A stretch of 22,014 nucleotides of DNA from the IMG/VR virus record IMGVR_UViG_3300038427_000053; one strand, given 5' to 3'. The stretch's first letter is position 1. Each line of letters opens with the position of its first letter. The position numbers and the translations under genes were made by a program. Source of the DNA: a virus. Positions 5,001-20,592 of this stretch are shown here, piece by piece. Under the pieces are notes generated by a model that worked only from the letters and a program-made list of their open reading frames with translations, made no database searches and was not told where the DNA came from.

Positions 5001-5318
5001 GAGATAGGTTTTATTCATCTTGAAGCAGTTCGTACTGGAGGAGTTCCGAAGGTTGCGGTCTTGGTGGGTGAGGTAAGTGGTTGGCCGGGGTGTCCGCCGT
5101 TCGACGATTTGGGGAAGGTAGTGCATGATCCTCCACGGCTGCCTGAGAGTAAAAGTTTGCACTCTAATCGTTATTACATGACGCAAACTGGCAAGCCTGC
5201 GTGGTGTAGGCATCTCCAGATCAAAATTGCATTTGCTATAGAAGATGCTATGAATGAAGTATTATCCTTCACAGCATATGGTGCAATACATTTAGAGCGG
5301 TCGGAGAGTGGAAGATGA
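2016..5318 (+). CDS. Tail hub/nozzle protein (P22 gp10 / T7 gp12-like) with a large inserted repeat region
   Basis: Start moved from 1938 to ATG 2016 (TAATG overlap with the adaptor stop), giving 1100 aa. Beta-propeller-like blades (FLSVGNTLYIGNG; IWGFVDNVLYFS; GLYVILEDSI; LFTSDRQVIG) and an Ig/FN3-like YYTYAY...INIYRT...YND segment. Stop overlaps the next ATG (ATGA). Confidence 0.7.
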   Translation: MANALLAAGAVPKGQTHWAPIFSNEFFSGLWTNRNPLRDPATPFIYGKFYSASRYEALWDGLNTEVSPRLTLIRAPGHSVFNANTFPFLNDFYSYQVDGVNRPNFVRLVADSADYVYDLYDATTETDSVAGTNTGQTILFTKSAGAGQTRFLSVGNTLYIGNGVDKYQYLTSGFKWKAGYAMPSGAFIVDGNGNIQLALGVTVPCTNIVINGGTLTATVNYLEDGLGNTLLQAGTQIVLENMNSAFLNGMSLVVTSVSATGPTITATIASSAIPSGENENPGADGVNTGFVVIQSLNGMLGSTAPTFNTNFNGLTLDNNGATPGTNLWQMKGPALRRWGIDSPTTIITPTNAINTSVASTWAANTYYMPSVLPQTGPMIVVGNYIWQLIAGGTTGGTPSFPGSPTVGSTTYTDGGATWKCVAAKTRLLSHAYALGALIAVTWTVTNLVTVQVPNPPSYGPYGPYGGSGTTTTYTYTYTYTAVFQCTTAGTTSNVADSGVTGNNPSPAWNSALKAYVSDGSVVWQNIGLGITRTDSATTGPVMTSSDDYTNVMTVGNIGNSIAVSLLGQVLDSNGAIEIVNIGGLSGPGPTAPSSGWSQIEGGSTTDNQITWINGGSSAAVGGIAAGTASWYYTYAYVDDITGSVGQAAPLSPAIVLAQNSYVQVQGAYYIPPSGPYNRIGTINIYRTPQGGPIAYLIAQIPNVPTAQGPWTYNDYSPDQGSPGSTMNNLLSADLIGYNSPPPDGFIPICLHLSSIWGFVDNVLYFSAGGDVTNMKGGWEAFPAGNNLSFQSTGHVGWGTNSGLYVILEDSIQLIAGTAPPFSPSRVVGIGIRSPNCFTLNGQSPFLFTSDRQVIGIDPSAGCTVDGFPIANLLAVAPFDPSTSYLTWHVDGTDQRLFIGDGAKAASGSQGYYNMINSITPEPPAAVWSPKRVIAAGCGCIKSVETYAGKYQMLVAPATSGPILYRDITKATDNGAKYAAWAIVGSNVLAHPGQIAEIGFIHLEAVRTGGVPKVAVLVGEVSGWPGCPPFDDLGKVVHDPPRLPESKSLHSNRYYMTQTGKPAWCRHLQIKIAFAIEDAMNEVLSFTAYGAIHLERSESGR
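3386..3455 (+). repeat. Micro-repeats TTATGGTCC x2.8 and TATACT-type repeats encoding YGPYGPYG and TYTYTYTYT
   Basis: Seen directly: ttatggtcc ttatggtcc ttatgga (3386-3410) and tatact tatact tatacg tacaca (3432-3455). Confidence 0.85.
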
Positions 5319-5788
5319 TTGTTTATCTTATTACTAACCTAATCAATGGTAAACAATATGTAGGAAAAACAACAAGATCATTAAAGGTAAGATGGGCACG
5401 CCATCAGTATGAGGCTATTAGGGGTCGTAAACAGGCTCTTTATTATGCAATTAGGAAATATGGAGCCGTATGTTTTAGTATAGAGGTTTTAGAAGAGGCA
5501 GACCTTAAAACAGAACAAGATATGAATCTTTGTGAGATTCTATATATCAAATTTCTGAATACTAAAGCGCCTAATGGTTATAATTTAACAGATGGTGGTG
5601 AAGGAACTATTGGAAGAGAGGTAAGTCTTGAAACTAGAAATAAACTTAGTAAAGCACTTACAGGAAAACGTGCTTCTCAAGAAACTAAAGATAAAATGAG
5701 AAAAATTTCTTTAGAACGTGGCGCACGTCCTCCGTCTAGAAAAGGAATTGCTCCTTGGAATAAGGGTAGAAATGCCGACACTAGATAA
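5315..5788 (+). CDS. Free-standing GIY-YIG homing endonuclease with NUMOD3-like DNA-binding tail
   Basis: IVYLITNLINGKQYVGKT...RWARH...E...GYNLTDGGEG catalytic domain followed by SLETRNKLS / SQETKDKMR / PWNKG motifs. AT-rich (about 33% GC in line 5341-5400). Confidence 0.93.
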   Translation: MIVYLITNLINGKQYVGKTTRSLKVRWARHQYEAIRGRKQALYYAIRKYGAVCFSIEVLEEADLKTEQDMNLCEILYIKFLNTKAPNGYNLTDGGEGTIGREVSLETRNKLSKALTGKRASQETKDKMRKISLERGARPPSRKGIAPWNKGRNADTR

Positions 5789-6893
5789 GTCAACTCAGAA
5801 GCCGAAGGGAGTAGGCCCAGCAATTACACCTGTGGCACCTACTGCGTTGCCTCCACCAAGTGATGCTAGTACGGTGACGCGCACTACCTTCCCTACTTCT
5901 ACGCCTGTTAGCCCGGACACTTTGAATTTGTGGAATGATCGAAGCGCCGGGCTTCCTACACGAGGGCGGCTGATCCCAGTTACGGCGGCTGGCGCTGGCG
6001 GATCGGGGTCCGGCTCGCAAGGTAGCCAAGGCAACCAAGGTAGTGCTGGAACATCGGGTAGCTCTGTTACAGGGTCGCAAGGCAATCAGGGCAACCAAGG
6101 CAATCAAGGGAACCAATCCTCTGTCGCTGGGCCTCAAGGGAACCAAGGCAATCAAGGTAACCAAGGACCCTTTGCGGGAACATCACTGGTTCAAACTACT
6201 AATCAGAACTCCCATGGGCTAGGGTCTCCCGGAGCGTGGGTCGCAGTCTACTTCGACGAAGGTTCTTCGCTTTGGAAGAAAGCCAAGGCAGACAACGCCA
6301 ACACTCTTGGCTTCGCAATTGCTGTCATCATCGACAGTAATAACTTTTCTCTGTATACCGAAGGACAAATTACTGGCGGCTCTGGTTTGACAGCCGGTGA
6401 GTATTACTTCGTTAGCGACTCTGTTGCAGGCCAATTGACGACCACAGAGCCTACCGCCTCGACGAGCTATTCAAATCCGTTGATGCAAGCAACGTCATCG
6501 ACGACCGCCGTGATGGGGCAGTTTCGGCCAAGTCAGATCGCGCCCTTGACTCCTCAGCCTGTGCCGGTGTTGGTTCAAGCCGGTGCTGGCCCAGTGGCCG
6601 ACCCCGGCGGGAATGATTATTATCTCGCCAACAATTATGGAGTTTTGACATTCAATGTTCCAGCGGGCAGCGTGGTCGGTATGCAGCGTTGCTACTACAA
6701 CTACGTTGGAATTTCCGGCGCGATTACGTTGCAGATGGCAGCTAGCAACAAATGTTCTTTATACGGCGTAGACAGTGGAAGCGCAGGCACAGTTTTTGCA
6801 AGTGGTGTCGCGGGAGATTCGGTTGTTCTGGTCTGTGATGCAACAAATCACTGGACTGCTTTTGTTGTGGCCGGGACGTGGAGTAAAACGTAA
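5772..6893 (+). CDS. Collagen-like modular tail fibre / virion decoration protein
   Basis: Start moved from 5718 to ATG 5772 (after AAGGGT). Pro/Thr/Ser-rich N-terminus, interrupted GSQ/GNQ collagen, a WKKAKAD...GLTAGEYYFVS...GQLTTTEP beta-module common in phage fibres, and a C-terminal GDSVVLV...W...GTW module. Confidence 0.7.
   Translation: MPTLDKSTQKPKGVGPAITPVAPTALPPPSDASTVTRTTFPTSTPVSPDTLNLWNDRSAGLPTRGRLIPVTAAGAGGSGSGSQGSQGNQGSAGTSGSSVTGSQGNQGNQGNQGNQSSVAGPQGNQGNQGNQGPFAGTSLVQTTNQNSHGLGSPGAWVAVYFDEGSSLWKKAKADNANTLGFAIAVIIDSNNFSLYTEGQITGGSGLTAGEYYFVSDSVAGQLTTTEPTASTSYSNPLMQATSSTTAVMGQFRPSQIAPLTPQPVPVLVQAGAGPVADPGGNDYYLANNYGVLTFNVPAGSVVGMQRCYYNYVGISGAITLQMAASNKCSLYGVDSGSAGTVFASGVAGDSVVLVCDATNHWTAFVVAGTWSKT
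6012..6173 (+). repeat. Interrupted Gly-Ser/Asn-Gln collagen repeat
   Basis: GSQ GSQ GNQ GSA GTS GSS VT GSQ (GNQ)4 SSVA GPQ (GNQ)3 GPF; the DNA is built from degenerate 9-mers (ggNaaYcaR). Confidence 0.85.
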
Positions 6894-7531
6894 TGGAGCC
6901 AAGGTCAAGAATTTTGAATGCGCTCAAACACAAGAAGAAGTCAGTAACGGTCATTAGTAATGGCCTTTTCATGGGAAACATTGCTTGGGCTATAGACCTT
7001 GGAGCCGTACCAACTTCTGGCAATCTGTGTATTGCTATGTTTTCTGTTGATGACTCGGTTTTTCCTTGGGATGTGTTTAACGGATGGACACAGCAGGCTT
7101 CATTGAATAGCGGATCGACGGGCGACAATTATTCAGCTTCTAAAGTTGCCGTGCCGGGCGACCCTAGATACCCAGAGTTTCAGGCAGGCTCAAACATTGG
7201 CTCTGCGGATGGTGCGATGGGTGGTTGGCAGTTCCTTGGAGCGCCTACTGTTACATGGGGATCAGGAATTTGCACGGGTGGTGGTGGTACATTTTACACG
7301 CCGACGATTGTATCTGATGCGCTGAGCTATGTGATTATATTCACATCTTGTGAGGGGGCTGCTGTAACAGGCTGGTCGCCCGCAGGCTTTTCTCAGTGGG
7401 GGTATTACCGGGGAAGTTGGGTAGGAGTCATGACAGGAGCTATGAATCAGCCGTTTTCTATGACTTACACCGGCACGCCAACGAATGGGAACATGGTTTA
7501 TTTGTACGCAGTGGTAAATTGGGGAATGTAA
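6893..7531 (+). CDS. Tail accessory beta-sandwich protein (hypothetical)
   Basis: TAATG-coupled, 212 aa, G/S/T/W-rich. Shares a PTxGNLxI...G(W/F)xQ...GD motif with ORF 3..1283. Confidence 0.6.
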   Translation: MEPRSRILNALKHKKKSVTVISNGLFMGNIAWAIDLGAVPTSGNLCIAMFSVDDSVFPWDVFNGWTQQASLNSGSTGDNYSASKVAVPGDPRYPEFQAGSNIGSADGAMGGWQFLGAPTVTWGSGICTGGGGTFYTPTIVSDALSYVIIFTSCEGAAVTGWSPAGFSQWGYYRGSWVGVMTGAMNQPFSMTYTGTPTNGNMVYLYAVVNWGM

Positions 7532-7536
7532 AGACG

Positions 7537-8466
7537 ATGGCACAGACAGCTATAATTCGCGCTCTTGGAGGCTCGCAGGGCTTTCAGGGTAATCAGGGAA
7601 ATCAAGGTAATCAAGGCGCAGCGGGCAGCCAAGGTAACCAAGGCAATCAAGGGACGGCCGGCGCGGCAGGCTCACAAGGTAATCAAGGCGCAGCGGGCAG
7701 CCAAGGTAACCAAGGCAATCAAGGGACGGCCGGCGCGGCAGGCTCACAAGGTAATCAAGGCGCAGCGGGCAGCCAAGGTAACCAAGGCAACCAAGGCAAT
7801 CAGGGTAACACGGGAAGTAGTGGCGGAGTTTATCCTTTTACAGGATTTACCGCTCCTTCTAGTTCGGGATTTGGTTGGGTAAATCAGGGGTCTGCGTCTG
7901 TAACAATACAAAATGGTGTTTTGGTAATGCGCGCCCCCGGAACAGGTGGTGACAGTCTTCGTTTTTACGAAAAAACGTTGCCTACTACGCCGTGGACTAT
8001 AATTGGGGCGTTTGTGAAACGACCAAACTTTTTCATGTATCCGACAACACCGGCGGCGGAACCCGGTGGTTGGTATGACGGAATTGGGCTGTCTGACGGA
8101 ACCAAGTTCTTATTTTTTGGTGTAGCGGATAATAACAGTTATAACACACTTACCAATTTACCAACGCTTAACCTTGATGAATATAGCAATACGACTACTT
8201 TTTCAGGCACTCGTCTTTTTAGTATGAATATCTACATCTGGCCTCCAATTTGGTGGTTCAAAATCTATGATGACGGCACTAATCGAACCTATTGGATAAG
8301 CGTCGATCCAACTAATGCGGGTTGGCAAGAGATTTATACACACGCTCATACTGCATATTTAACTCCTAGTCAGGGGGGCTACATTATGGATGCATGGGAT
8401 GCTCATCTTAATGGTGTTACTGTGACCAGCAATGTTTGGGTTTCGTTTCAGATATTAAGCTCGTAG
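7537..8466 (+). CDS. Collagen-like tail fibre with a C-terminal ConA/L-lectin-like (probable receptor-binding) domain
   Basis: Start moved from 7396 to ATG 7537, just after the upstream stop. 28 uninterrupted Gly-X-Y triplets, then an aromatic-rich beta domain (WFKIYDDGTNRTYWISVD...WQEI) resembling ConA-like lectin folds. Confidence 0.75.
   Translation: MAQTAIIRALGGSQGFQGNQGNQGNQGAAGSQGNQGNQGTAGAAGSQGNQGAAGSQGNQGNQGTAGAAGSQGNQGAAGSQGNQGNQGNQGNTGSSGGVYPFTGFTAPSSSGFGWVNQGSASVTIQNGVLVMRAPGTGGDSLRFYEKTLPTTPWTIIGAFVKRPNFFMYPTTPAAEPGGWYDGIGLSDGTKFLFFGVADNNSYNTLTNLPTLNLDEYSNTTTFSGTRLFSMNIYIWPPIWWFKIYDDGTNRTYWISVDPTNAGWQEIYTHAHTAYLTPSQGGYIMDAWDAHLNGVTVTSNVWVSFQILSS
7603..7790 (+). repeat. Exact 72-bp tandem repeat, about 2.6 copies, within the collagen tract
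   Basis: Unit caaggtaatcaaggcgcagcgggcagccaaggtaaccaaggcaatcaagggacggccggcgcggcaggctca starts at 7603, 7675 and 7747 (third copy 44 bp); the copies are identical. Confidence 0.95.
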
Positions 8467-8469
8467 AAC

Positions 8470-8498
8470 TTGCTTTTAGACTTGACTTGTGCTAAACT
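8470..8498 (+). promoter_or_regulatory. Putative sigma70-type promoter for the glycosylation cassette
   Basis: TTGCTT (8470-8475), 17-bp spacer, TAAACT (8493-8498) with an extended -10 TGn. Lies in the largest intergenic gap of the tail region, 35 nt before ATG 8534. Confidence 0.6.
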
Positions 8499-8533
8499 GT
8501 TGGCATGAGTCAAATTCGGTTTTTGGAGAGTGT

Positions 8534-11062
8534 ATGCGCACGTGGGATTTGTTCGACACGCTCGCAGCGGGCAGGGTAATCGGTCCTCCGGCGGGAGAGC
8601 AAGAGCATCATTTCAAGCTAGCAGAGAACGTGGCACGGGTCGAAAAAGGTGATTTGGTTGTGTCTGACTATTACGATCCGAAGAAGGCCATGGGCGTCTT
8701 GAGAAAGGTTTGTGGCCTACAAAACGAGCTTCTCGTGACGGCTAGTGGGAAGCGTACCGGCGCAGTATGGCATAACTTGCAAGGCCAAGTCGAGGCGCAT
8801 GTCGGTGACGATGAAATATCCGATGTGCAAGTTCCCCGGCAGTTCGATATTCCAGCGGAGCGTACAAATCTATCCGCTCCTACGGACGTGGAAGGGTTTC
8901 TTTTTCGGTCGGGATTTCCTGGCTTGTCTACGTGCTGCCGAGAGGCACGTCTGACTTCGTATGACAAAGAGTTTCGTGGGTACGAACTCTTGCAAGCACA
9001 GGTCAATTTTCCGTTCCTGTTTCTCTGCGGCATTCTGCTTCATGCGAAATTGGACGGCGTAACGAGCGTTTTGATGTCGAGCCGTGATTGCTGCCTTTGG
9101 TTTTCCTTGATGCGAAAGGTGTGTAAGCTGCTTGGAGGCAAATACCACCTTCATTATTATCTGAGCAGCCGGCTGTCGCGCTTGAAGGCGTCCCCGGAGC
9201 ATCTAGCCTATACAAATTCTTTGCTTGGAGGACCTCTGCGGCCTTCTCCGGCAGTGGTAGATTTTGTATGGTACGGAGGAACGCTAGCGAAGTTACTCGC
9301 TAAGACATCCGCTCCGAACGTGCCGATCTTCGTTTTGGGAAAGTACACTTCGGCGAATACGCGCTCTGAGGCGCTGTTGCCCGAGACTAGAATGCTGTCG
9401 CACATCGAAGGTGCGAATCGGGCGCGTCATGCGATGGTTGCGGACACCGACGAGAAAGGCCATCCGACATACTACAACCCCTCAGGATTCCAGTGGGAGA
9501 AGTCAAAAGAGATTCAGGCCGGGCATGAGACTTTTCGGCTTGCCGAAGAAGCGATGTCTAATTATGATTTTTCTAAGGACATCGCACAGCCTCTTGAGCA
9601 TATACGGGCGACGGCTTTTACTTTGGCGGAACGTTTCGAGCAGTTCGGTACTGAGATTGACTATCTGGACCGGCGCTTGATGAACATCGAAGAGGGGGCT
9701 ATAAAGGCTGCGGTTAATGCGCTGGACCCGAAGTATTATGACACGCCGTGGTCTCCCATGTGGGGCGGGTCTGCTCCTGTGCCAGAACCTCCGCCTCTGC
9801 ATACTTTGCAGGTGAAGGATGGAGTGCGGGTTTCGATTTTCACGCCGACGCACAACCCGGTGTGGTTGCGCGAGGCTTACAACTCAATCAAGAACCAGCC
9901 GTTTTACGAATGGGTGATCGTGTACAACTCAGGTTCACCCCGGATTGGGTTTGACAAGGACCCGCGAGTTAAAGAGTTTGATCTTCTGGACAAAGGAAGG
10001 GGATTTACAGAGCCGTTCAAGATTGGGTTCCTGAAGAACGATGCGTGCTTACGCTGTACTGGCGACGTAATGCTGGAACTGGACCACGACGACATGTTGC
10101 TGCCCGGCGCTATCGAGGAAGTCCAGAGAGCCTTCGAGGACCCGGCGGTCGGGTTTGTCTATTCCAACGATGTGCTGTTTACGCCGACCTTTGAGCGCCC
10201 GACCCGATTTAATCCTGCGTGTGGATGGCAGTGGCGGGAGTACGATTACAACGGCCATTCTTTGGACGAGGTAGTTCAATGGGAACCACATCCGGCTAAT
10301 GTGGGCCGCATCTGGTTTGCGCCGGATCATCTACGATCATGGCGCAGTGATTTGTATAGGTCGATTGGCGGGCATGATAAGAATCGAGGCTGGCTTGACG
10401 ATTTGGACTTGATGTGCCGACTGTATCCATTAACTACTTTCAAACATATCGACAAGCCCCTGTACATGTACCGCATTCATGGCGGGAATACGTGGCTACG
10501 GCCTGAGATTAATAAGGCAATTCAGGAAGATGTATGGCCGACGTGGGATATGTATATTCAAGGAATGGCGGAGGTGTGGGCTAAAAGGAAAGGATTAAAG
10601 CTGCTAGAACTAGGTGGTAGGATGGCAGCAAAGCTTGGCTATATTACAGTTGATTTGAAAGATGCAGATGTGATTACAGACCTTAACAAACCATGGCCGT
10701 GGGAAGATTCAACGGTTGGTGTAGTAAGAGCTTATGATGTGTTTGAGCATCTTACTGATTCATTGCACACTTTCAAAGAATTGTATCGAGTGCTTTCACC
10801 GGGAGGTATGGCTTTCATTCAAGTTCCTTCAACAGATGGTAGAGGGGCGTGGGCCGATCCTACACATAAAACGTTCTACAACGTAAATTCTTTTTATTAC
10901 TTTATGGATCGTAATTTTGCAAAGTATATTGACACGCCTGTACGATTTTACATGCCCCGATTGTTTACGACTACGAAAGATGGGAGCGGGACTTGCTGGG
11001 TCAGGGCCGATGCAATTTCTTTGAAAAATGGATTTCGCCCCGGCGGAGAGATTACAATTTAG
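8534..11062 (+). CDS. Multidomain glycan-synthesis enzyme: HAD phosphatase, PRT-like domain, GT2 glycosyltransferase, SAM-dependent methyltransferase
   Basis: Start ATG 8534 after GGAG. HAD motifs WDLFDTL / VVSD / GKRTG / HVGDDEISD; then SSRD (9077) and VVDFVWYGGT (9254). GT-A fold VSIFTPTHN...ELDHDD (10082). Methyltransferase LLELGG...DLNKPWPWEDSTV...DVFEHL...ELYRVLSPGG...ADPTH. Confidence 0.85.
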   Translation: MRTWDLFDTLAAGRVIGPPAGEQEHHFKLAENVARVEKGDLVVSDYYDPKKAMGVLRKVCGLQNELLVTASGKRTGAVWHNLQGQVEAHVGDDEISDVQVPRQFDIPAERTNLSAPTDVEGFLFRSGFPGLSTCCREARLTSYDKEFRGYELLQAQVNFPFLFLCGILLHAKLDGVTSVLMSSRDCCLWFSLMRKVCKLLGGKYHLHYYLSSRLSRLKASPEHLAYTNSLLGGPLRPSPAVVDFVWYGGTLAKLLAKTSAPNVPIFVLGKYTSANTRSEALLPETRMLSHIEGANRARHAMVADTDEKGHPTYYNPSGFQWEKSKEIQAGHETFRLAEEAMSNYDFSKDIAQPLEHIRATAFTLAERFEQFGTEIDYLDRRLMNIEEGAIKAAVNALDPKYYDTPWSPMWGGSAPVPEPPPLHTLQVKDGVRVSIFTPTHNPVWLREAYNSIKNQPFYEWVIVYNSGSPRIGFDKDPRVKEFDLLDKGRGFTEPFKIGFLKNDACLRCTGDVMLELDHDDMLLPGAIEEVQRAFEDPAVGFVYSNDVLFTPTFERPTRFNPACGWQWREYDYNGHSLDEVVQWEPHPANVGRIWFAPDHLRSWRSDLYRSIGGHDKNRGWLDDLDLMCRLYPLTTFKHIDKPLYMYRIHGGNTWLRPEINKAIQEDVWPTWDMYIQGMAEVWAKRKGLKLLELGGRMAAKLGYITVDLKDADVITDLNKPWPWEDSTVGVVRAYDVFEHLTDSLHTFKELYRVLSPGGMAFIQVPSTDGRGAWADPTHKTFYNVNSFYYFMDRNFAKYIDTPVRFYMPRLFTTTKDGSGTCWVRADAISLKNGFRPGGEITI

Positions 11063-11072
11063 AGGCGTATAA

Positions 11073-11465
11073 ATGGCTTTCAAAAACATCGAAGAAAGAC
11101 GTGCATATCGTAGAAAGTGGTATAAATTACATCCAGAAAAGTGGAAAATTTATTATGAAAATAAGAAGAAAAAGGGCTTGAAAAAACTTAGAAAACAAGA
11201 AAGAAACCAATATTTACGGCGTGAATATGGTATAACAACAATTAAGTGGGGTATGCTTTTTGAAAAACAAGGTAGACGTTGTGCTAATCCGGGATGCCGT
11301 GCTAGCATTCCCGGCTATCGTAATTGGCATACCGATCACAAGCCCGGAAGCAACCCTCCTATTGTACGTGGTATTCTGTGCCACGGTTGTAATACCGCTC
11401 TTGGACTGGCCAAAGATAACCCTGTTGTATTACGTGGTCTAGCTGATTATTTGGAGACTCATTAG
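11073..11465 (+). CDS. Endonuclease VII-family HNH endonuclease (probably a free-standing homing endonuclease)
   Basis: YLRREYGIT...QGRRCANPGC...HTDH...VRGILCHGCNTALG...YL is the recombination endonuclease VII Zn/HNH signature. Lys-rich N-terminus; AT-rich. Confidence 0.9.
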   Translation: MAFKNIEERRAYRRKWYKLHPEKWKIYYENKKKKGLKKLRKQERNQYLRREYGITTIKWGMLFEKQGRRCANPGCRASIPGYRNWHTDHKPGSNPPIVRGILCHGCNTALGLAKDNPVVLRGLADYLETH

Positions 11466-11466
11466 A

Positions 11467-12591
11467 ATGCAAAAAGTCTGGCTAAACATGATTGTCAAAG
11501 ATGGTGCTTCTACGATTAAACGCTGTCTTGATTCTGTAAAGCCGATTCTTAAGGGCTATGCGATTGTTGACACGGGTTCTACAGACGGAACGCAAGACAT
11601 TATTCGGATGGAGTTGGCTGATTTACCCGGCAAATTGATTGAGATTCCGTTCCAAGATTTTTCTCAGGCTCGCAATGAAGCTCTGAAACTAGTTAAGGAA
11701 TTGTGCGAGAAAAACGATTACATTCTTTTACTCGATGCTGACGAAGAGCTTTGTTACCATGCAGAGCACAGCATTCCAGACTTGAAGGCTGATTGCTATG
11801 ACTCGCTTATTCGTCTTCGGAATTTGGAATATTGGCGGATGCTTATCGTGCGGGCAGGGTTGCCTTGGTGTTGGCGGGGTGCGTGCCATGAGTATTTAGA
11901 TTGCGCCGGATTATTTCGCAGAGAGAGACTAGATTGCTGGCGTCAAGCTTACGAGCATCCCGAGAGAAGCGGCAAGGAAGTTTCGCTTGCCCACGCCGCC
12001 TTGCTGGAAAAGAGCCTAAAGGAAAACCCCGGAGATTCGCGGTCGGTGTTCTACTACGCGCAGTGTTTGCGAGACGCGGGCAGCCTCATGCAGGCCGAGG
12101 CGCAGTATCAGCGGCGCGTACAGATGGGCGGGTTTCAGGAAGAAGTCTACGTCTCGCTGTTGGAGATTGGCCGCATCTGTGAACGCGGTGCCAAACAGCC
12201 GGGCGTAGTGATCGACGCTTACCTTCGTGCATACGCATTTCGACCGGGGCGTGCTGAGGCTTTGGGAAGTCTGTTGCAGTTTCTTCGTAAGCAGCGCCGG
12301 TATTACGAAGCGACGATGTTTGCTTCTGAGGCTCTGTCGTTGAGGCTGTCTCACGATGTTCTCTTCGTCGAAGGGGACTGGTTGAAGTGGAGGTTGTTAG
12401 ACGAGATCACGTTCTGTGCGTATTGGGCTAACCGGCTTGATCTGGCAAAGATGTGTTCCGAAAAATTGCTCTTGTGCGATGTTCCGTCTACGGAGAGGAC
12501 TCGCATTGACTGTAACCATAAAGTGATTTTGGATGCTTCGCTTGGCATTACAAATCCTCACGCAAAACAAATCTTCAAAGCATCTGCATAG
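11467..12591 (+). CDS. GT2 glycosyltransferase with C-terminal TPR repeats
   Basis: WLNMIVKD...RCLDSV...IVDTGSTDGT...FQDFSQARNEAL...YILLLDADE (DxD at 11734)...HEYL, then TPR-like RSVFYYAQCLRDAG...YLRAYAFRPGRAEAL...LFVE. Confidence 0.9.
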   Translation: MQKVWLNMIVKDGASTIKRCLDSVKPILKGYAIVDTGSTDGTQDIIRMELADLPGKLIEIPFQDFSQARNEALKLVKELCEKNDYILLLDADEELCYHAEHSIPDLKADCYDSLIRLRNLEYWRMLIVRAGLPWCWRGACHEYLDCAGLFRRERLDCWRQAYEHPERSGKEVSLAHAALLEKSLKENPGDSRSVFYYAQCLRDAGSLMQAEAQYQRRVQMGGFQEEVYVSLLEIGRICERGAKQPGVVIDAYLRAYAFRPGRAEALGSLLQFLRKQRRYYEATMFASEALSLRLSHDVLFVEGDWLKWRLLDEITFCAYWANRLDLAKMCSEKLLLCDVPSTERTRIDCNHKVILDASLGITNPHAKQIFKASA

Positions 12592-20091: not shown

Positions 20092-20592
20092 ATGGTTATT
20101 TATCTAATTCGCAACAAAATCAACGGAAAAGAATACGTCGGACAGACTGTGCAAAGTTTAGAACGACGTTGGCAAATCCATTTGTGTGGAAAACAACAAG
20201 CTATTGATCTGGCTATTAAGAAGTATGGTGCTGAAAATTTTGAATTATCAACATTAGCATGGCCACGAACTTTAGAAGAAATGAATGTTGGAGAAGAGGC
20301 CCATATATTTTCACGCCATACGATAGCTCCGAAGGGATACAACCTACTTCCCGGAGGCAACAATCATCGCCCTACCTCCGAAACTAGAGCCAAACTTCGA
20401 GCATCTCGTGCTGGCCAAATACGCCCTTCTTGTACTGAAGAAACAAAATTAAAAATGAGACTAGCACATTTGGGAAAACCCGGAACCATGTTGGGAAAGA
20501 AGTTTACACAGGAACACAGAAAAAAATTAAGCATTGCGGCGTTTAAGCGCGAAGCAGTAAGGAGACAAATTCGTGCCTCTTCCAATATATGA
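20092..20592 (+). CDS. Free-standing GIY-YIG homing endonuclease with NUMOD3-like motifs (second copy)
   Basis: VIYLIRNKINGKEYVGQT...RWQIH...GYNLLPGG; SETRAKLR / EETKLKMR / GKKFTQEHRKKLS. Confidence 0.93.
   Translation: MVIYLIRNKINGKEYVGQTVQSLERRWQIHLCGKQQAIDLAIKKYGAENFELSTLAWPRTLEEMNVGEEAHIFSRHTIAPKGYNLLPGGNNHRPTSETRAKLRASRAGQIRPSCTEETKLKMRLAHLGKPGTMLGKKFTQEHRKKLSIAAFKREAVRRQIRASSNI

Follow-up and report, generated by a model that had tools for sequence, protein, structure and literature searches.

The window considered here is a stretch of 22,014 nucleotides of viral DNA (IMG/VR record IMGVR_UViG_3300038427_000053), from a phage whose source is peat metagenomes. It carries a gene (8534..11062, + strand) encoding an 842-residue protein in which four domains are joined, namely a capless HAD phosphatase, a glycan phosphoribosyltransferase (gPRT), a GT-A glycosyltransferase and an S-adenosylmethionine (SAM)-dependent methyltransferase. 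A single open frame spans positions 8489-11062, and the ATG at 8534, with the sequence GGAGAG 8 nt upstream, is the likely start codon. The phosphoribose phosphatase (PRP) domain, a HAD core devoid of a cap, occupies aa 1-116 (8534..8881, + strand) and holds D5 (in the DLFDT motif), S44-D45, K73 and D92...D97. It is followed by the gPRT or CriT-like domain (aa 117-397; 8882..9724, + strand), assigned from residue equivalences, conservation and fold matches to two solved ribofuranosyltransferases, Bcs3 and 7SHG. In the predicted model, this second domain comprises a helical bundle (aa 118-172 and 325-397) and a five-strand alpha/beta core that bears SRD 183-185, SSRxxR 211-216, D243...G248-G249-T250 and E292/N295. 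A Pro-rich, disordered linker (aa 398-432; 9725..9829, + strand), where the predicted local distance difference test score (pLDDT) falls below 60 from aa ~400, joins the two halves of the protein. The second half consists of a GT-A domain of the GT2 family (aa 433-655; 9830..10498, + strand), identified by PF00535 (E 7e-7), its model and Foldseek, and a class I SAM-dependent methyltransferase domain (aa 687-842; 10592..11062, + strand; PF08241 E 3.6e-6, phrog_6636 E 1.7e-10). Pfam recognized in the whole protein only the GT2 domain (aa ~440-660) and the class I SAM methyltransferase (aa ~690-800), and aa 1-430 matched no family in library scans of Pfam, NCBIfam or PHROGs. No membrane segment was predicted in the 842 residues; the highest-scoring stretch of 19 residues on the Kyte-Doolittle scale (1.57) lies inside a buried helix. 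The protein is probably a soluble four-domain enzyme that builds glycans and is made during phage infection; this estimate covers the identity of the enzyme and the order of its reactions, whereas the acceptor is judged separately below.

An assembly artefact was considered as the origin of the fusion and ruled out, because the same protein (838-853 aa) recurs in many independent samples recorded in JGI, ENA, Logan and NCBI. When the whole window was compared by megablast with 50,697 phage records, no match was returned, and the nearest virus record (G001), a fragment of 20 kb, lacks the enzyme gene.

The sequence-only reading of this locus had described a HAD domain with its four motifs, followed by LMSSRD, YYLSSR and AVVDFVWYGGT. 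We found each of them at its place and all in the frame of the enzyme gene: DLFDT (aa 5-9, nt 8546-8560), VVSD (aa 42-45), GKRTG (with K73), GDDEISD (aa 91-97), LMSSRD (aa 180-185, nt 9071-9088), YYLSSR (aa 208-213) and VVDFVWYGGT (aa 241-250, nt 9254-9283). The end proposed for this region, position 9740 (aa 402), also agrees with the predicted fold, in which the last helix stops at aa 397, ahead of a disordered stretch (aa 398-430). Motif I reads D-x-x-D-T, with Phe at +2, instead of the canonical DxDxT, and the same variant is present in the CrpP phosphatase of Bcs3 (FDIFDT). In a family alignment of 60 homologues, which share 25-42% identity with the window protein, K73, H89, D92, R184, D185, Y208, D243, G248 and E292 are invariant, and D5, T9, S44, D45, D97, S212, R213 and N295 are conserved in at least 90% of the sequences. 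Hence, the motifs do not occur by chance. The catalytic residues are also invariant, or nearly so, across seven viral copies. As for the size of the family, a word-indexed search recovered 19 relatives of the N-terminal region with varied extra domains, and an exhaustive phmmer search with the same region yielded 571 representatives of clusters at E<=1e-3, including 72 at E<=1e-30. The same reading had noted that the HAD domain has almost no cap, and this is accurate: the capless form, to which the window protein belongs (40/60 homologues), has ~23 residues separating motif I from the core strand that follows, as compared with ~82 in the capped relatives (19/60) and ~100 in Bcs3 CrpP. Stand-alone proteins of the capless form measure ~390-410 aa and those of the capped form ~480-520 aa, and both forms occur in viruses and bacteria. 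Of note, one database protein of 1884 aa (P0042) is matched by the module in five separate stretches and may be a chain of PRP-gPRT units.

When used alone against the PDB, the sequence of the N-terminal region gave chance matches only with phmmer (ribosomal L28, E 0.6), and a family profile was therefore needed. Family profiles matched Bcs3 (8A0C/9H50) with E-values of 1.3e-26 and 5.6e-17, in an alignment that runs unbroken from HAD motif I to the SRD and SR loops of CriT, and the Thermobacillus composti protein 7SHG with E-values of 0.0044 and 4.2e-6. The AlphaFold2 model of the N-terminal module, built from the 60-sequence alignment, is of high quality (pLDDT 91.5; predicted template modelling score 0.90) and is folded up to aa 397. 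The top eight Foldseek matches of this model in the PDB were Bcs3 and 7SHG chains (E 1.9e-11 to 3.2e-9), the ninth being an unrelated one at 7e-4. VIA-align superposed model residues 1-387 on residues 382-968 of Bcs3 with Z 19.4/18.2, and the model on 7SHG with Z 16.8 at 18% identity; by way of calibration, the accepted family member STM0726 reaches Z 21.4 against 7SHG, with an identity of 16%. Below Bcs3 and 7SHG, VIA-align returned single-domain matches only, namely mammalian PNKP (Z 9.7) and roughly two dozen purine phosphoribosyltransferases (PRTases) of type I, which cover aa ~150-380. In a Foldseek-independent search of 48,161 representative chains, only Bcs3 and 7SHG spanned both domains (Z 17-18). 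They were followed by HAD phosphatases aligned on aa 1-116, led by the capless T4 Pnkp (Z 13.5, root-mean-square deviation 2.4 Å over 113 residues).

Three features of the PRP-gPRT family are present in the window protein. The phosphatase has a HAD fold with D5, S44, K73 and D92/D97 in place and conserved; the gPRT has a type I PRTase-like alpha/beta core of five parallel strands and stands after the phosphatase in the same chain; and the residues for phosphoribosyl pyrophosphate (PRPP) comprise SRD in loop 1, S-R in loop 2, D243 with a Gly-rich loop and T250, and E292. The accessory elements of the solved family members are missing, as the protein has no HAD cap and no HB-2 or HB-3 bundles. 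We do not regard this as a ground for exclusion, because these elements differ even between Bcs3 and 7SHG; moreover, part of HB-1 is dispensable in Bcs3 (PMC10299916). Altogether, aa 1 to ~400 very probably form a minimal PRPP-dependent ribofuranosyltransferase of the PRP-gPRT, or CrpP-CriT, kind. The initial interpretation of the region as a CrpP-CriT-like phosphatase plus glycan PRT is thus supported by the profile match, the fold match, the all-chain search and the PRT-like second domain. The structure search gave no indication of a non-PRT fold, the type I purine PRTases appearing at Z ~6-6.5.

We also considered that aa 1-430 might be a generic HAD hydrolase followed by a structural or regulatory Rossmann-like domain, or by a salvage nucleobase PRTase, with no part in glycan ribosylation. 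Such a view would fit with the failure of Pfam, NCBIfam and PHROGs to place these residues in any family, with the annotation of the homologue in Virus Rctr41k merely as 'HAD superfamily hydrolase-like', and with the Z of ~6 to purine PRTases, which is in the common-fold range. However, the two solved ribofuranosyltransferases are the only two-domain matches among the 48,161 chains, the profile E-value is 1e-26, the CriT-specific PRPP-binding residues are invariant, and the module is always found with glycosyltransferase and methyltransferase genes or domains. These data make a generic hydrolase highly improbable.

The active sites of Bcs3 provide a reference for the individual residues. In its CrpP phosphatase, D386 is the nucleophile and K548 the motif III lysine, and the DXD motif keeps only its first Asp; in CriT, S678, R679, S707 and S884 contact the PRPP beta-phosphate, R708, R712, T825 and the main chain of 821-825 contact the 5-phosphate, D680 and E818 contact the ribose, and E874 is the proposed base (PMC10299916). 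Loop 3 of Bcs3 (E818...T825) holds the ribose and 5-phosphate of PRPP (PMC10299916). We read the equivalences from hidden Markov model (HMM) alignments, after converting SEQRES indices into residue numbers. D5 corresponds to D386, K73 to K548, S183-R184-D185 to S678-R679-D680 and S212-R213 to S707-R708, and D92/D97 are placed with loop 4 of CrpP. In the 7SHG alignment, VDVGWKGT falls on VDFVWYGGT and ERYN falls on EGAN (E292-N295), and each strand, loop and helix of the model has its counterpart, in the same order, in CriT beta20 to beta25. Because of this alignment and the identical topology, D243, T250 and E292 would occupy the places of Bcs3 E818, T825 and E874. The proposal that VDxxWxGxT is the PRPP-binding loop fits these data, as it pairs with VDVGWKGT of 7SHG and corresponds to loop 3 of Bcs3 by strand-loop-helix order.

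Several details count against our reading of the enzyme. R216 lies one position off Bcs3 R712, and the correspondence of D243, T250 and E292 with Bcs3 rests on topology and the 7SHG alignment, HMMER having left that stretch of Bcs3 unaligned. In addition, substrate handling may differ from that of Bcs3 in an enzyme lacking the cap, HB-2 and HB-3. At the position of the 80-residue HB-2 of Bcs3 there are 28 residues (24-28), HB-3 has no counterpart, and the model ends after the long helix. Since HB-2 and HB-3 ring the active site of Bcs3, their absence should leave the window protein with two more open active sites.

The comparison with Bcs3 CrpP-CriT (8A0C/8A0M; PMC10299916) reveals a common plan. 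In both proteins, a HAD phosphatase precedes a PRT-like transferase, motif I has the form D-x-F-D-T with only the first Asp conserved, and PRPP is met by SRD and S-R loops and by an acidic residue with a G-x-T loop; the two align with Z 18-19 over 370 residues. They differ in that identity is only ~15%, the cap (~100 aa in CrpP) is absent here, and D243 stands in place of E818. The fusion partners are also distinct, a GT-A domain and a methyltransferase here versus a TagF-like ribitol-phosphate transferase and SH3b in Bcs3, and the module described here is phage-encoded. The dual-domain PRP-gPRT enzymes of Klebsiella O4/O7, Salmonella T1 (STM0726) and T. composti (7SHG) share with the window protein an N-terminal PRP and a C-terminal gPRT in one chain. 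Unlike the window protein, those known are bacterial and act on O-antigens or capsules. As compared with 7SHG, the module is shorter (~400 versus ~650 aa), has no cap, and carries SRD instead of SRE in loop 1. PRP-gPRT enzymes use PRPP and yield beta-linked ribofuranose (PMC11127046). They occur alone, complexed with a GT-A protein, as STM0726 is with STM0725, or fused to other transferases, as in Bcs3 and Cj1432. Cj1432 of Campylobacter jejuni combines a glycosyltransferase, a phosphatase and a gPRT in one chain for three consecutive steps, in which the glycosyltransferase adds the next sugar onto ribose (PMC12096443). By its description, it resembles the window protein in joining a Leloir glycosyltransferase to a phosphatase and a PRPP-dependent ribosyltransferase. 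However, the domain order is GT-PRP-gPRT there and PRP-gPRT-GT-methyltransferase here, and Cj1432 has no methyltransferase.

The C-terminal half of the protein, hereafter GT2-MT, also exists alone and is then very common in phages. A model of aa 433-842 (pLDDT 90.5) shows the GT-A domain, a long helix (aa ~657-685) and the methyltransferase. Sequence searches of the PDB with this half alone gave no match. The GT-A domain was matched by Foldseek to K4CP (E 4e-13), SpsA (1.5e-10), WrtF and RmlT, and its assignment to GT2 is supported by this fold, by PF00535 above the cut-off and by the DxD motif DHDD (aa 517-520; nt 10082-10093), which is invariant in 31 homologues. The GT-A fold is a generic one and does not discriminate between protein and polysaccharide acceptors. 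For the methyltransferase, PF08241 also scores above the cut-off, and the LELGG loop lies at aa 691-695. Stand-alone GT2-MT homologues start at the equivalent of aa ~433 with the consensus 'M.ISIFTPTH'. They are proteins of ~403 aa, with 1,916 database matches, the best 120 of which align over their full length at 52-59% identity. In IMG/VR, the GT2-MT protein is present on at least 582 viral contigs and lies in virion modules of unrelated phages, such as a podovirus in which a nozzle gene, a collagen fibre gene, GT2-MT and a gp14-like gene are found, and a Mu-like head module. Contigs of 300-360 kb carry it as well. Cyanophage S-CRM01 has a copy with 40% identity. We then examined the neighbourhood of the GT2-MT gene in the 80 best viral loci, and none (0/80) carries a ribose module within 10 kb. 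For this reason, the two halves are not general partners and the fusion looks lineage-specific. In the fusion, a Pro-rich linker connects an added PRP-gPRT with the older GT2-MT unit, and this arrangement has been kept in many samples. The ribose module is very probably a minimal, phage-borne version of a known enzyme type, joined here to a GT2-methyltransferase unit that many phages possess.

The ribose module also exists as a separate gene in viruses. Six further viral contigs, that is, four from IMG/VR, one more metagenome contig and Virus Rctr41k, encode a stand-alone homologue of 390-466 aa with every catalytic residue intact. In the five metagenome contigs, the cassettes (L005 3022-9197; L006 8001-11464; L007 2388-5920; L008 4516-9940; L009 6750-9946) include GT2, GT11, galactosyltransferase-like or TOD1-like glycosyltransferases together with methyltransferases of the Methyltransf_24, RMNT_CmcI, Methyltransf_23 or Methyltransf_11 types. 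The Rctr41k cassette (L013 5368-8927), judged by annotation only, has two upstream genes for a 'methyltransferase-like protein', a flanking 272-aa hypothetical protein and no annotated glycosyltransferase. Except in Rctr41k, where it is capped, the ribose module of these cassettes is capless, and two of the cassettes lie directly upstream of terminase genes. The recurrence of ribose, glycosyltransferase and methyltransferase activities as separate genes supports the notion of a shared pathway.

Based on these homologies, we propose the following order of reactions. The gPRT (aa 117-397) would bind PRPP-Mg, the pyrophosphate being held by S183, R184 and S212, the 5-phosphate by R213, R216 and the G248-G249-T250 loop, and the ribose by D185 and D243. 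With E292 probably acting as a base on the acceptor hydroxyl, beta-ribofuranose-5-phosphate would be moved to that hydroxyl and pyrophosphate would leave. In a second step, the capless HAD domain (nucleophile D5, with K73, S44, D92 and D97) would strip the 5-phosphate. Judging from their domain families, the GT-A domain, through its DHDD motif, would next add a sugar derived from a host nucleotide sugar, possibly onto the ribose as in Cj1432, and the SAM methyltransferase would finally O-methylate the product. A role in DNA modification was considered and rejected, in view of the small-molecule or O-methyl type of the methyltransferase, the GT2 partners and the structural context of the gene.

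The genes around the enzyme bear on the nature of its acceptor. Directly upstream lies a collagen-like tail-fibre gene (7396..8466, + strand; Pfam Collagen E 1e-14, PHROG tail fibre E 1e-26) with 28 Gly-X-Y triplets, mostly GNQ/GSQ, in repeats at 7570-7821; translation of this gene may in fact begin at the ATG at 7537. A second fibre gene (5718..6893, + strand; PHROG tail fibre E 1e-8) contains a shorter collagen-like stretch. Hence, the enzyme gene follows two collagen-like tail-fibre genes and precedes large ejection-type proteins, all on the same strand. Downstream, a GT2-TPR glycosyltransferase is encoded at 11467..12591 (+ strand; Pfam GT2 and TPR; phrog_13126 E 8.5e-28), and its closest solved sequence relatives are the peptide and protein glycosyltransferases SunS (E 1.7e-5) and GmaR (E 7.9e-5). 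By this resemblance, it is a possible initiating protein glycosyltransferase. The GT2-TPR gene is kept in the close relatives of the window. Beside GT2-MT genes elsewhere, only weak GT2-level matches to it were found, and it is therefore considered lineage-specific. Two GIY-YIG/NUMOD3 homing-endonuclease-like genes, and an endonuclease VII gene between the two glycosyltransferase genes, were also observed (5315-5788, 11073-11465 and 20092-20592).

The vicinity of collagen-like genes is not peculiar to the window. A collagen-like ORF is present in 43/81 GT2-MT loci. Among 64 dereplicated clusters, 35 (~55%) have a run of at least eight Gly-X-Y triplets on the same strand no more than 3 kb away. 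These runs reach a density of 3.6 per 10 kb in the nearest interval (0-2 kb from the gene), as against 0.3-0.4 in the interval of 6-10 kb, a roughly 10-fold excess near the gene. In the triplets beside GT2-MT genes, the Y position is Gln in 61% and Thr in 17%, so that almost all are Gly-X-Gln or Gly-X-Thr, and the GNQ/GSQ triplets of the window fibre are of the same kind. On the basis of this gene neighbourhood, our tentative assignment of the acceptor is a virion-protein glycan, probably on the upstream collagen-like tail fibres, with GT2-TPR as the possible initiator.

Some observations weigh against a fibre acceptor. All characterized PRP-gPRT members act on polysaccharides, and the GT-A domain is likened to polysaccharide glycosyltransferases in general and not to protein glycosyltransferases in particular. 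The stand-alone ribose cassettes do not adjoin collagen-like genes. Furthermore, two relatives of the window (L002 and L003) have kept the enzyme gene while the upstream fibre gene has been largely replaced. In these relatives, He_PIG-domain proteins (L002 1-1461; L003 1-1345) replace the fibre genes at window positions 5718-8466, only the last ~53 residues of the fibre gene being retained, which places the recombination boundary a short distance before the start of the enzyme gene.

The same chemistry could instead be directed at a host envelope glycan, such as an O-antigen, capsule, teichoic-acid or exopolysaccharide intermediate at the cytoplasmic face, and alter the cell surface, for instance to block superinfection or to aid release. 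In line with this are the polysaccharide substrates of every characterized PRP-gPRT enzyme, the proximity of the GT-A domain to K4CP, WrtF and RmlT, the homologues found in bacterial contexts (L011, and names from Terriglobales and Acetobacteraceae), and the seroconversion proposed for a phage-borne pentofuranose system of another type. However, the gene lies within a same-strand fibre and ejection module and not beside lysogeny genes, the GT2-MT family is found inside head or tail modules of phages that are unrelated to each other, in tight linkage with collagen-like structural genes, and no membrane anchor, flippase or polyprenol-linked enzyme is found in the window. We therefore deem a host-glycan target unlikely. 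Another scheme keeps the fibre as the target and makes the enzyme itself the initiator, with the gPRT placing ribose-5-phosphate straight on a side chain (Ser, Thr or other) and the phosphatase trimming it. The loss of the cap and of the HB-2/HB-3 ring, which should open the active sites to bulky acceptors, would suit this scheme, as would the fact that T4 Pnkp and PNKP, the closest HAD folds, are capless and act on macromolecules. Even so, direct ribosylation of the fibre appears improbable: a protein acceptor is known for no family member, capless members occur in bacteria too, and the separate GT2-TPR enzyme, SunS/GmaR-like in sequence, is available as an initiator. Taken together, the 842-residue enzyme most likely builds a methylated, ribofuranose-containing glycan, probably on collagen-like tail fibres.

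In mycobacteriophages, glycosyltransferase genes lie near the capsid and tail genes, and virion glycosylation has reportedly been addressed there by experiment. Capsid glycosylation has been inferred from glycosyltransferase genes of this kind (PMC11256854). The window resembles such virion glycosylation cassettes in having a glycosyltransferase gene inside the structural module, with different hosts and virion types. To our knowledge, no PRPP-dependent ribose module has been reported in them. Among the papers searched, none ties the PRP-gPRT type to a phage, the sole phage mention being a different, membrane-bound three-component pentofuranose system.

It was not until 2022-2023 that PRP-gPRT enzymes explained how ribofuranose enters bacterial glycans, and this type has so far been described solely from the synthesis of capsules and O-antigens in bacteria. 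It is absent from Pfam, NCBIfam and PHROGs, and viral copies are labelled 'HAD hydrolase' or 'glycosyltransferase' in public records. A minimal phage version of 400 residues would extend ribofuranosyl chemistry to viruses. Because PRPP is present in every host, a phage could in this way add a sugar without a nucleotide-sugar pathway. The compact, cap-free module could also be tried in chemo-enzymatic glycan synthesis. Moreover, the GT2-MT fusion partner points to an unrecognized link between phage glycosyltransferases and collagen-like fibres. This link offers a testable hypothesis on the role of many phage 'auxiliary' glycosyltransferases, and bears on the tuning of fibre surfaces and hence on host recognition or stability. 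Tentative as well is the broader proposal that phages glycosylate Gly-X-Gln tail fibres through a dedicated and widespread GT2-MT, to which one lineage has added a ribofuranosyltransferase, so that its virions bear a methylated ribofuranose glycan. If true, no viral glycoprotein with ribofuranose would have been known before, and a general link of phage collagens to glycosylation, so far unrecognized, would come to light.

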